64,000 nucleotides of DNA from Methanonatronarchaeales archaeon (GCA_018263395.1 JAANXF010000013.1:1264-65263), one strand, 5' to 3'. Shown: positions 5,192 through 53,831, counted from the first letter of the stretch. Made by a program: numbers and translations. The notes: generated by a model from the letters alone, not told the origin.

Positions 5192-5260
5192 TGCCCCGGG
5201 CCGAGCGTAAGCGAGGGCCGAGGGGTGTAGAATCCGGAGGACGCACGGAGCGAAGCGGAG

Positions 5261-5334
5261 TGGGTCCGACCGGATTCGAACCGGTGATCCTCGCCGTGTA
5301 AAGGCGATGTCATGACCGACTAGACCACGGACCC
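5261..5334 (-). tRNA. tRNA-Val (TAC)
   Basis: Reverse complement folds as a cloverleaf: GGGTCCG/CGGACCC acceptor stem, TCGCC-TTTACAC-GGCGA anticodon arm, GGTTCGAATCC T arm. Confidence 0.97.
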
Positions 5335-6509: not shown

Positions 6510-6583
<74 letters not shown>

Positions 6584-6669
6584 CTCCGCGGTGTAGGGAG
6601 GTAATGCGTGGTGCGTGGGGCCGTACGGCTGGACAAACGCTTTACCCGTGTGGTGTAAGAATCTCTATC

Positions 6670-14047: not shown

Positions 14048-14321
14048 ACCGACCCAGCCTCCGTTACACCGGGAGAAACCCCGCCGGGTGCCATCCCCAC
14101 CGTCGACGCCGGTATCCCGGGGACTCGATGGGTCCCGGCCACAACCCCGTACACAAAGCCGCTCACGGTTCCCCACGCCATCGGGGTAACACGTTTAAGC
14201 ACGGGTTCACCGGCAACGTTGCCCTCACCCATGCCGCGTGGATACCGCGCCCGCCCCCTGTCATCGTCGCCGCGTGGCCCCGGCTCCGGTTGAGAGGCGT
14301 TCGCAGGAGACGGAGCGGTCC

Positions 14322-39950: not shown

Positions 39951-40985
39951 CTATATCACACCGGTATCCTCGGCGACCCTCTCGGCCGCCTCCCTCGTTA
40001 TTCCATCGCTCCCCAATATTGTATACCTCCCGGGCCGGACGGAGTGGGCGGTGGTCAGGGCATCCAAGAGGACGTCCCCGTCGACCCCGAGTCCCTCGGC
40101 GTCCAGCGGGGCTCCCAGTGTCTCCAGGGCGTCCCTGATCGTTTCCCAGTCACCGTTGTGGAGGTACATCGTCAGGATCGAGCCCACCCCGCACTGCTCG
40201 CCGTGAAGCGCGGCGCCGGGGGCTATGGAATCCAGCACGTGACTGAACATGTGCTCCGCCCCGCTCGCAGGCCTCGACGACCCGGCTATCGACATGGCGA
40301 CACCGCTGCTTATCAATCCCTTCATCACGACCTTGACTGATTCCTCCAGCCCGGGCCGAATCGAGGACGCGTTCTCGACCATTATGGTGGCCGTCATCTC
40401 GGACAGCGTCGAGGCGTAACCGCTCCTGTAATCACCCCTGAGGCGCTCAGCCAGGCTCCAGTCCAGCACAGCCGTCTTGTTGGACACTATGTCCGCGCAG
40501 CCGGAACACATCAGCCTCTCCGGCGTGTCCGCTATGACGGACGTGTCCGCCACGACCGCGAGAGGCGCGTCTGCCGAGACGCTCTTCGACGAACCGCCTC
40601 CCCGCAGCGAGGCCCTGTTGGACGCCACGCCGTCGTGTGAAGCGGCGGTCGGGACGCTGAGGAACGGTACCCCGGTGCGGCTGGCACCGAGCTTCGCGGT
40701 GTCGATGGAGCGGCCGCCGCCGACGCCCACCAAGAAGTCGGCGTCCAGCCCGGAGACGGCCTCCACCGTCGCCTCGTCCACGCTGTCCGAAACCTCGACC
40801 TCTACCGAGAAGCCCCCCTCCGAAAGCACCTCCGCGACCCGGTCGCCGGCGACGCGACGGGTAGTGGGTCCGGTAACGACGCCCGCCGATCCCTCCAGCC
40901 CTATGTCCAGCGCCACGGAGGCCACCCGGTCGAGCGCGTCCCTGCCTACTACGACGCTTCGGGGAAGCTGCATCTCGCGGGTCAC
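39951..40985 (-). CDS. egsA: sn-glycerol-1-phosphate dehydrogenase
   Basis: GGGRSID, PTAASHDG, SRPASGAEH, HGEQCG. Confidence 0.95.
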   Translation of the reverse strand: MTREMQLPRSVVVGRDALDRVASVALDIGLEGSAGVVTGPTTRRVAGDRVAEVLSEGGFSVEVEVSDSVDEATVEAVSGLDADFLVGVGGGRSIDTAKLGASRTGVPFLSVPTAASHDGVASNRASLRGGGSSKSVSADAPLAVVADTSVIADTPERLMCSGCADIVSNKTAVLDWSLAERLRGDYRSGYASTLSEMTATIMVENASSIRPGLEESVKVVMKGLISSGVAMSIAGSSRPASGAEHMFSHVLDSIAPGAALHGEQCGVGSILTMYLHNGDWETIRDALETLGAPLDAEGLGVDGDVLLDALTTAHSVRPGRYTILGSDGITREAAERVAEDTGVI

Positions 40986-41122
40986 CGTAATCGTTTAAAA
41001 AGCTACCTCTGAATCCTTATAGGTAGCGCATCCCCCCGTATGGAGGTCTCGAACGGCGGCCACCTCCCCGCCGGGGGCCTCCCCGTCAACCTTATAGCCC
41101 TCACGGACCACTCTACGCAGGT

Positions 41123-41381
41123 GGGGTCGTGGCCTAGTCCGGAAGGGCGACGGGCTCCAGCGGTACGCACCGCTTCGAAGAAGCGGGTGCTAAACCGGCC
41201 TGCCCACGCGGCAGCCCGGGATGATGAAGAACGGGTAAACCGAGCCGGGTCAGCGCAACCCGAGCGATGACGACCCGTTGGAGCACTGAACCGGTATCGG
41301 TTCAGTCCGTAGAAACCGTCAGGTTTCGAACTCTGAACCGGAGACACCCGTTAATCGTGGGTTCAAATCCCATCGACCCCA
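41123..41381 (+). tRNA. tRNA-Trp (CCA) with 185-nt intron at position 37/38 (41161-41345)
   Basis: Exon 1 GGGGTCG...ACGGG-CTCCAG; exon 2 A-CCCGT...GGTTCAAATCC...CGACCCC-A; canonical bulge-helix-bulge (CUCC/GGAG helix, AG^C and AC^A bulges). Confidence 0.95.
41216..41294 (+). ncRNA. Intron-encoded box C/D guide RNA for Cm34 and Cm39 of tRNA-Trp
   Basis: C ATGATGA 41221-41227, D' CCGA 41240-41243, C' ATGACGA 41267-41273, D CTGA 41286-41289; the +5 guide bases pair with C39 and C34. Confidence 0.9.
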
Positions 41382-41816
41382 TGCCCAAAAAACGCCTGAA
41401 ACCTCCGTGCTGAGGAACGGATCCACTCCGTAGCTCGGCCTCCCGTAGAACCGTGTCCCCTGGATTCAGCTATACTCCACTTCGCCTACCGTCCCCCAGA
41501 GTGTCTCCACGTCCCTCCACGGGCTCCGTGGCCTTTCCGTCCCTGACCGTAAGTCTGGGCACACCTCGCCCCCTCTCCGGTTCACGAGGCCCGCCGTGCG
41601 GAGGCCCCCGGAGGCGCCCAACCGGCTCCGCCCCCTCCCCGCGCACCGTCAACCAGCGGACAGGAGCGGGGTACCCCGGAATCCGGGGCCTCCTACGGCT
41701 TCGAGGGCCACCCCGATGGGCCGACCCGGCGGGGTCGCCGGCCCCGCGACCGGACGCGTCCTCGTGCAGATGGACCGGGGCCAGATATAATGTGACGGGC
41801 TCCTAATCAGTCGGCA

Positions 41817-53556: not shown

Positions 53557-53758
53557 TTCCTCATACGGTATGCCGAGGGATATCACCAAAGTGCCGGACG
53601 ACCCCGGCCTTCGACCGTAAGCCGTGCTCCTCTTTTATACTCGTCGACTTTCTCCCACAGATCCTCCGGAAAGGAAAGGTTGGTCGGATGCATCCCGGAG
53701 AAACCTTCGTCTCAGTACCTTGGACTTGGATAACCTTGTACAGGGCTTGTACAAGATA

Positions 53759-53831
53759 GGCCGGGACCGAGAATCGAACCCGGGTCGCAGCCTCCACAGG
53801 GCTGTAGGATAACCACTACCCCACCCCGGCC
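53759..53831 (-). tRNA. tRNA-His (GTG) with encoded G-1
   Basis: G-GCCGGGG...CAGCC-CTGTGGA-GGCTG...GGTTCGATTC...TCCCGGC-C. Confidence 0.96.

Follow-up and report, generated by a model that had tools for sequence, protein, structure and literature searches.

A tRNA-Trp guide intron enlarged by two insertions, with a hairpin predicted to mask box D, in a Methanonatronarchaeales archaeon

The tRNA-Trp(CCA) gene of a Methanonatronarchaeales archaeon contains an intron that is a known euryarchaeal box C/D guide, predicted from its boxes and guides to direct methylation at Cm34 and Nm39. In a comparison whose nearest genomes belong to the same class only, this intron is about 100 nt longer than its same-class counterparts, owing to two inserts. 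The reading tentatively preferred here, at somewhat less than an even chance, is that the known guide intron has been enlarged by two insertions and that a 9-bp hairpin (hairpin A) masks box D as a passive competitor, which is also the most economical mechanism. The analysis itself shows the anatomy of the gene, the membership of the 5' insert in a repeat family, the folding energetics and the masks found in other lineages.

Anatomy of the tRNA-Trp gene and its guide intron

The window, i.e. the whole stretch of DNA that was analysed, comprises 64,000 nucleotides (GCA_018263395.1, JAANXF010000013.1:1264-65263). With long introns permitted, ARAGORN places the tRNA-Trp(CCA) gene at 41123-41381 on the (+) strand, with an intron of 185 nt; at default settings the gene is unseen by this program. 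The two exons, joined by a script, give a tRNA-Trp of 74 nt (Table 1). Intron-less tRNA genes are also located in the window, namely Val(TAC) at 5260-5334 (-), Val(GAC) at 6510-6584 (+) and His(GTG) at 53758-53831 (-).

The Rfam model sR3 (RF01133, box C/D RNA) matches positions 41217-41291 with 47.3 bits, above its gathering score of 41, at an E of 1e-8 and over model positions 1-55 of 55. The intron has the consensus boxes of such guides; (i) box C of the form RUGAUGA, (ii) box D of the form CUGA, and (iii) internal C' and D' boxes, the degenerate D' box being found also in two same-class loci (L011 and L016). The D guide (41275-84) pairs with 41154-63 across the exon-intron junction (I4, 10 nt, 90%), and in this duplex C34 (C41157) faces G41281, which is the fifth nucleotide upstream of box D. 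The D' guide (41230-36) pairs with 41346-52 over 7 bp, as read from the sequence, and G41235 facing C41347 indicates C39 as the target at the fifth position. Both targets agree with the reviews, which describe the euryarchaeal Trp intron as the guide for Cm34 and Nm39 methylation.

The bulge-helix-bulge (BHB) motif, also read from the sequence, has the hBHBh' form, with two 3-nt bulges, a 4-bp helix between them and flanking helices. It was accepted as a folding constraint, the free ensemble not predicting it. The genome encodes fibrillarin and Nop5, in adjacent genes, and an EndA of the two-domain form, both tRNA_int_endo domains lying in one 362-aa frame (contig C6:17603-18349 (-)). For the Haloferax EndA a strict requirement for hBHBh' is reported in the literature. 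The functional labels given to these elements in a first-pass annotation, made from the bare sequence, hold in the light of the sR3 match, the D-guide pairing and the ARAGORN identification of tRNA-Trp(cca).

Table 1. Coordinates of the tRNA-Trp gene, its intron elements and further repeat copies (positions in the window unless a contig, C, is named)
Feature	Position	Strand	Basis
tRNA-Trp 5' exon, positions 1-37, anticodon CCA at 41157-59	41123..41160	+	sequence, ARAGORN
Trp intron, 185 nt, between positions 37/38	41161..41345	+	ARAGORN; splice sites from BHB geometry
tRNA-Trp 3' exon	41346..41381	+	sequence, ARAGORN
Box C, ATGATGA	41221..41227	+	Rfam sR3 alignment
D' guide (41228-39) and degenerate box D', CCGA (41240-43)	41228..41243	+	Rfam sR3 alignment
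Box C', ATGACGA	41267..41273	+	Rfam sR3 alignment
D guide (41274-85) and working box D, CTGA (41286-89)	41274..41289	+	Rfam sR3 alignment, I4
BHB anticodon stem	41150-54 / 41347-51	+	read from sequence
BHB central helix	41155-58 / 41340-43	+	read from sequence
BHB bulges	41159-61 and 41344-46	+	read from sequence
BHB outer helix h', only 3 bp	41162-64 / 41337-39	+	read from sequence
5' insert, copy of the ~64-nt double-hairpin repeat	41159..41212	+	nhmmer profile
Hairpin A, 9 bp, GTAT loop, covering box D and, at 41291-94, the terminal-stem 3' strand	41285..41306	+
Hairpin B, 6 bp, within the 3' insert	41312..41327	+	probability 0.99 at 37 C, 0.28 at 80 C
CTGAACCGG copy 2 (41333-41) and BHB 3' strand	41333..41346	+	D1, D2, I8
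Further repeat copies	C9:19005-19080, C15:33556-33628, C18:56202-56273, C13:8971-9102, C1:29223-29450

Two inserts and the possible separation of a shared helix

The genome has a size of 1.17 Mb in 22 contigs, is 78% complete and has a G+C content of about 63%. In three same-class introns (L005, L011 and L016) the distance between the 5' splice site and box C is 4-12 nt and that between box D and the 3' splice site 9-15 nt, so that one short helix is at once the terminal stem of the K-turn and h'. In the present intron the corresponding distances are 60 nt and 56 nt. One of the same-class genomes has its own intron core in common with Archaeon SCG-AAA382B04.

The 5' insert consists of a hairpin at 41167-90, a linker and a second hairpin at about 41195-41219. 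A profile built from 18 other copies of a dispersed repeat matches it at 41159-41194 (envelope to 41212) with 22.8 bits and a genome-wide E of 6.4e-5, over profile positions 4-39, which comprise the first hairpin and the linker; the second hairpin has diverged from the profile. Five further near-copies of the first hairpin have been found in the genome by BLAST.

The 3' insert is a stretch of 47 nt between box D and the BHB strand. As a candidate copy of the same repeat family it was rejected, the best profile match in a 301-nt search having an E of 0.78 and lying on the opposite strand, and BLAST gave no match to it elsewhere in the genome; it is therefore not simply another copy of the repeat element. 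The same-class genomes are without the 3' insert or any extension at this place. By eye, 41307-41334 resembles the start of the 3' exon and the T-arm (41346-41372), and a palindrome centred on TTCGAA occupies 41319-36, which may hint that the insert derives from tRNA-like sequence. A lineage-specific 26-mer of the 3' exon has no exact match in the genome and metagenome contig collections searched, and no relative that carries the insert came to light in these searches.

The strands of the shared helix are now doubled, since CGG is present at 41161-63 and again within 41216-19, and ACCGG at 41290-94 and again at 41337-41. This doubling allows h' (outer) and the terminal stem (inner, 41216-19 / 41291-94) to be separate helices. 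Small insertions can in this way distribute the two functions of a single helix over two helices.

A dispersed double-hairpin repeat family

The repeat to which the 5' insert belongs is about 64 nt long and gives 22 nhmmer matches at E<0.01 in the 1.17-Mb genome, the copy at 41159-41212 being the only one within the window at this threshold. An alignment of the copies shows a conserved linker and compensatory changes in the stems of both hairpins. Single copies are flanked by short direct repeats (by eye), and three copies in tandem are located at C19:35179-35375. The family has no Rfam match and was not found in the 300 other genomes of the phylum that were searched.

Two copies (C8:49885-50005) lie in frame and stop-free inside a family B DNA polymerase gene (L272:2350-4854 (-)). 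Within the 835-aa frame, residues 7-737 and 794-822 are covered by the alignment with PDB chain 5mdn_A, and the gap in this alignment indicates an insert of about 49 residues near the C-terminal part of the polymerase. Other copies are found in open frames on contig C7 and, in a different reading frame, at the start of a TrpC-like frame on contig C10. The Pfam matches of fibrillarin (C15:32956-33534) and Nop5 (C15:33629-34138), the proteins that work on the guide of the intron, are separated by 94 bases, and the copy at C15:33556-33628 lies in this gap, a neighbourhood that may well be coincidence. At window positions 14193-14202 (-), corresponding to C5:15456-15465, the linker motif is followed by a hairpin-like stretch; this is possibly a partial copy and is not among the profile matches at E<0.01.

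Since the enlargement owes its 5' half to a dispersed repeat, insertion of junk DNA is a live alternative, and it is weighed below.

The repeated segment and hairpin A

The segment CTGAACCGG occurs twice, at 41286-41294 and 41333-41341 (repeat search, family D1), as the first-pass annotation had noticed. At 82% identity the two copies can be followed over 17 nt (D2, 41278-94 against 41325-41, spacing 47), and a third near-copy, CTAAACCGG, lies at 41190-41198. Copy 2 provides the 3' strand of the BHB, contributing both to h' (41337-39) and to the central helix (41340-43), again in agreement with the first-pass annotation. In other genomes it is box D that occupies the position of copy 2, beside the BHB strand.

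Between the copies lies the anti-arm CGGTTCAG (41298-305). The claim that it is complementary to both copies is correct, with the restriction that the pairing covers 8 nt, CTGAACCG, of each. With copy 1 it forms hairpin A (fold A), which does have 9 bp as stated (arms 41285-93 / 41298-306, I5, 9 nt, 100%, 4-nt loop); the ninth pair is A41285-T41306 and does not involve the last G of the repeat. With copy 2 (fold B) it pairs over 8 nt at 100% (I8, 41298-305 / 41333-340). I5 and I8 share 41298-305, and folds A and B are mutually exclusive by sequence, in line with the first reading of this region. The motif ACCG, with which the 5' CGGT of the intron was proposed to pair in fold B, is present at 41194-97.

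Among dinucleotide-preserving shuffles of the intron, 2 of 20000 contain a perfect 8-bp hairpin (loop 3-10) together with a downstream copy of its 5' arm, a motif that was defined after being seen. The region 40900-41600 (701 bases) shows 0 differences and no variants in the separately assembled contigs of four DNA runs, which come from one study that is possibly the source of the assembly itself. The anti-arm also has a near-partner at 41190-98, and copy 2 has a small local partner of its own at 41319-22 (I2, spanning 41319-41336); these additional partners argue against a clean two-state design.

Folding energetics

All folds refer to naked RNA with nested pairs; K-turns, proteins and tRNA tertiary structure lie outside the model. 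In the free ensemble the pair probability of hairpin A is 0.98, 0.87 and 0.74 at 37, 60 and 80 C, that of fold B 0.004, 0.078 and 0.068 at the same temperatures, and that of the BHB helices at most 0.02 at each of them; the cis guide:target duplex reaches 0.98 at 37 C. Two alternating folds, as the first-pass annotation had envisaged, find no support in the unconstrained ensemble, where one fold, hairpin A together with the cis guide:target duplex, dominates. The preference for the guide duplex is found also in the consensus fold of 81 Methanosarcina-type precursors, and it thus reflects what the model omits rather than any special property of the present gene.

With the tRNA arms fixed at 37 C, the energies are -119.0 kcal/mol for the guide duplex with hairpin A, -116.5 kcal/mol for fold B, -115.4 kcal/mol for the cloverleaf and BHB with hairpin A, and -103.5 kcal/mol for the cloverleaf and BHB with 41286-94 kept single. 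From the last two values, hairpin A is worth about 12 kcal/mol. The splice-competent, fold B and guide-duplex folds are within 4 kcal/mol of each other at 37 C and within 1 kcal/mol at 70 C under the same constraint. Hairpin A is present in every low-energy state, and fold A is credible and very probably exists in the Trp precursor RNA. A fold combining the cis guide duplex with the terminal stem (-77.6) was disregarded, being a pseudoknot beyond nested scoring, and folds with both guide duplexes were disregarded likewise.

When boxes C and D are kept single and the terminal stem is formed, fold B has -110.1 against -103.0 kcal/mol for the BHB fold at 37 C, and -42.8 against -39.3 kcal/mol at 70 C. 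An L7Ae-bound K-turn would withhold boxes C and D in this manner. The proposed coupling of splicing to guide assembly via box D thus stands in part: fold B is favoured by about 7 kcal/mol once boxes C and D are withheld, but it has a probability of at most 0.08 in the free ensemble. The logic of the switch is therefore physically possible according to the model, with a coupling that would be conditional on box D being taken away.

Masking hairpins in the Trp introns of other archaea

A gapped pattern composed of box C, both guides and box D found at least 120 metagenome and at least 120 genome loci. Together with further loci these gave, among the matches listed, 181 unique introns, which were grouped by their ends; three rows without recognisable exon ends were left out. 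Among these matches 51 introns are of the Methanothrix type, 81 of the Methanosarcina type, 8 of the Methanocella type, 15 of the Methanoperedens type and 24 compact, with 2 others, the present intron and L079. A 3' extension of at least 20 nt (20-112 nt, box D to 3' splice site) is found in 157 of the 181 introns among the matches listed.

In the Methanothrix type (44 distinct sequences among the matches listed), the partner of box D is a conserved strand that adjoins the h' strand of the BHB on its 5' side. Six core pairs of this mask are formed in 42 of 43 to 44 of 44 sequences; one pair is AU in 36, GC in 7 and GU in 1, and another is UA in 40 and UG in 4 of the 44 listed. Over nine pairs (six core and three outer) the paired fraction is 82.7%, and it falls to 18-37% if the partner is shifted by 1-3 columns. 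This paired fraction is reached in 3 of 500 shuffles and the covariation score in 4 of 500, whereas the two measures that count pairs or pair types do not rise above the shuffles for this mask (494/500).

In the Methanosarcina, Methanocella and Methanoperedens types a hairpin is present in each of the 72 distinct segments among the matches listed; the last 5-6 guide nucleotides and the C of box D pair with a stretch just downstream, and in the Methanocella type the entire box D lies within the stem. The last guide nucleotide is paired as A-U in 53, G-C in 10 and G-U in 7 of these listed segments, is unpaired in 2 and forms A-C in none, as counted from minimum-free-energy folds of the single sequences, the alignment having left the 3' arms out of register. 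The masking arms are conserved islands, with compensatory changes, and the remainder of the extensions aligns poorly. Relatedness among the sequences makes these counts overstate the independent events, which are few.

By simple pairing measures, masking is hardly more frequent than chance. The probability that the last 5 guide nucleotides and box D are paired with the extension is 0.75 in the present intron and 0.55 after shuffling (10 of 40 shuffles reach the observed value); for the other groups the observed and shuffled values are 0.65/0.51, 0.51/0.55, 0.86/0.57 and 0.60/0.51. For box D alone they are 0.49 and 0.48 over the 157 introns with extensions among the matches listed. RNAalifold applied to the 81 Methanosarcina-type precursors gives the cis guide duplex and a D'-C' hairpin, and neither the BHB nor the mask, so that consensus folding by itself gives the mask no support.

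Judged from these sequences, hairpin A appears to be one of a recurrent class of local hairpins masking box D or the end of the guide. In the other lineages the masks lie in different registers and are not homologues of hairpin A, and a second copy of box D has been found in none of these lineages among the matches listed. Close relatives of the Methanoperedens type (L036, L178, L232 and L260) differ from each other by palindromic inserts of about 20-45 nt, which flank the C/D core on both sides; introns of this type thus accept junk, and small hairpin insertions into the Trp intron recur in a second lineage.

Proposed mechanism and alternative explanations

The proposed sequence of events starts from the compact relatives, in which a single short helix would double as terminal stem for the C/D K-turn and as h' for the BHB. 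A copy of the repeat would have been inserted between the 5' strand of this shared helix and box C, and an insertion-duplication of 47 nt would have been placed between box D and the BHB strand, giving two separate helices. Copy 1 of CTGAACCGG would then serve as working box D and terminal-stem strand, and copy 2 as the BHB 3' strand only. With the anti-arm held on copy 1 in a stable 9-bp hairpin, box D would be masked by default and the BHB strand left free. Hairpin A would thus be a passive intramolecular competitor that biases the precursor away from cis C/D assembly, and assembly of the RNP would depend on L7Ae, Nop5 and fibrillarin out-competing a hairpin of about 12 kcal/mol. We infer that hairpin A forms in the cell, affects the order or the efficiency of methylation and splicing, and is under selection. 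Reviews describe both the methylations and the Trp intron as dispensable in Haloferax volcanii, from which it follows that such selection may be weak.

The alternative that survives best, less likely than not but only a little behind the preferred reading, is neutral insertion. According to it the 47 nt are a recent insertion or template-switch duplication with no selected role, tolerated since the intron is removed anyway and the guide acts in trans or is dispensable. The perfection of the repeats (9/9 and 8/8, with a mismatch-free 9-bp stem) is explained equally well by a recent event and by selection, and the absence of the insert from the same-class genomes points the same way. The derivation of the 5' half from a dispersed repeat, the palindromic inserts tolerated by Methanoperedens-type introns, the pairing of random extensions with the box D region about equally often, and the dispensability of the Haloferax intron, reported in reviews, all speak for it as well. 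A 9-bp hairpin over box D should, however, hinder the K-turn, and yet the boxes and both guides are intact and score above the Rfam threshold. The duplication moreover gives each of the two helices its own strand, which looks compensatory, the conserved masks elsewhere show that selection can keep such hairpins, and the 3' insert matches neither the repeat profile nor any other part of the genome.

The full bistable switch, as put forward in the first-pass annotation, is considerably less probable. Folds A and B would alternate, and splicing would await C/D RNP assembly and methylation; in a variant given the same low probability, the output would be a tRNA-Trp yield dependent on L7Ae, Nop5 and fibrillarin. 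The advantage that fold B has over the BHB fold at both 37 C and 70 C, once the terminal stem is formed and boxes C and D are held unpaired, agrees with such a switch, as does the small energy gap between the competing folds under fixed tRNA arms (4 kcal/mol or less at 37 C and 1 or less at 70 C). So does the EndA, a 362-aa frame with two endonuclease domains: given the strict need of the Haloferax enzyme for hBHBh' that is reported in the literature, loss of h' should block cleavage. The switch is opposed by the probability of fold B in the free ensemble (0.004-0.078), by the lack of a second box D copy in other lineages among the matches listed, and by the third near-partner of the anti-arm at 41190-98 and the local partner of copy 2 at 41319-22. 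A broader form of the same idea is equally doubtful: an anti-guide or anti-box-D arm would generally keep the guide closed for the cloverleaf and BHB, L7Ae binding to the K-turn would flip the RNA, and the X/anti-X/X arrangement seen here would be one instance. Were this toggle real, the freed anti-arm would capture the BHB strand and splicing with a strict hBHBh' requirement would be blocked during RNP assembly, which would make it a protein-operated RNA switch ordering tRNA modification and splicing.

An artefact or another origin (an assembly error, a second, nested intron or a guide that is decaying and non-functional) is very improbable: default ARAGORN misses the gene and the D' box is degenerate (CCGA), but four separately assembled contigs are identical over 701 bases, ARAGORN with long introns finds an intact tRNA-Trp, the boxes are preserved together with both guides, and inspection of the predicted folds by eye showed no second BHB around the 47 nt.

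Comparison with known systems

The present intron shares with the Trp-intron guide sR3 of Haloferax volcanii and Pyrococcus the 37/38 site, the boxes C, D', C' and D, and a BHB for EndA, as well as a D guide that reaches across the 5' exon-intron junction to C34 and a D' guide for position 39. It differs in length, with 185 nt against 103 nt in Haloferax and about 60-100 nt in same-class genomes. It also differs in having a duplicated box D masked by a perfect 9-bp hairpin, and a 5' extension that is a copy of a dispersed repeat.

How pre-tRNA-Trp passes between the guide fold and the EndA fold has been an open point since the discovery of the guide. The methylation and splicing folds were reportedly found to exclude each other in work by Clouet-d'Orval and colleagues in 2001. 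Refolding of pre-tRNA-Trp between the guide duplex and the BHB/cloverleaf is the subject of Clouet-d'Orval et al. 2001, Bortolin et al. 2003, and Singh et al. 2004 and 2008. To our knowledge, these four studies contain no anti-box-D or anti-guide arm. The mutually exclusive folds are shared with the published system, and the programs used here also prefer the cis guide:target duplex over the BHB. A full-text literature search, which extended to part of the literature and lay outside the primary Trp-intron papers, found no mention of an anti-guide or anti-box-D arm. The novelty claimed for this arrangement accordingly narrows to the anti-box-D arm, since exclusive methylation and splicing folds have reportedly been published already. 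A built-in competitor strand would offer a simple physical answer to the passage between the two folds, and one testable at the bench. The comparison points for this purpose to the conserved, covarying masking hairpins of genetically tractable methanogens, e.g. Methanosarcina.

Short dispersed hairpin-forming repeats in many copies are known as Rickettsia palindromic elements and similar families. Like these, the copies described here occupy intergenic DNA, an RNA gene and, in frame, the interior of protein genes; they differ in their archaeal host and in sequence, and have no Rfam match here.

Hairpin A and the masks of the four other types have in common a stretch of the extension whose sequence complements box D, the last nucleotides of the guide, or both. 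In the other types this stretch follows directly after box D or, in the Methanothrix type, lies at the far end of the extension, and the registers vary: the guide end is paired with the UGA of box D in the loop, or the whole box D is paired together with the guide, or a long-range helix forms beside h'. With attenuators and riboswitch platforms the intron shares the X/anti-X/X arrangement, in which exclusive helices would decide whether a downstream processing signal forms. In contrast to them, neither a ligand nor a ribosome takes part, and the proposed effector is the binding of the K-turn by L7Ae.
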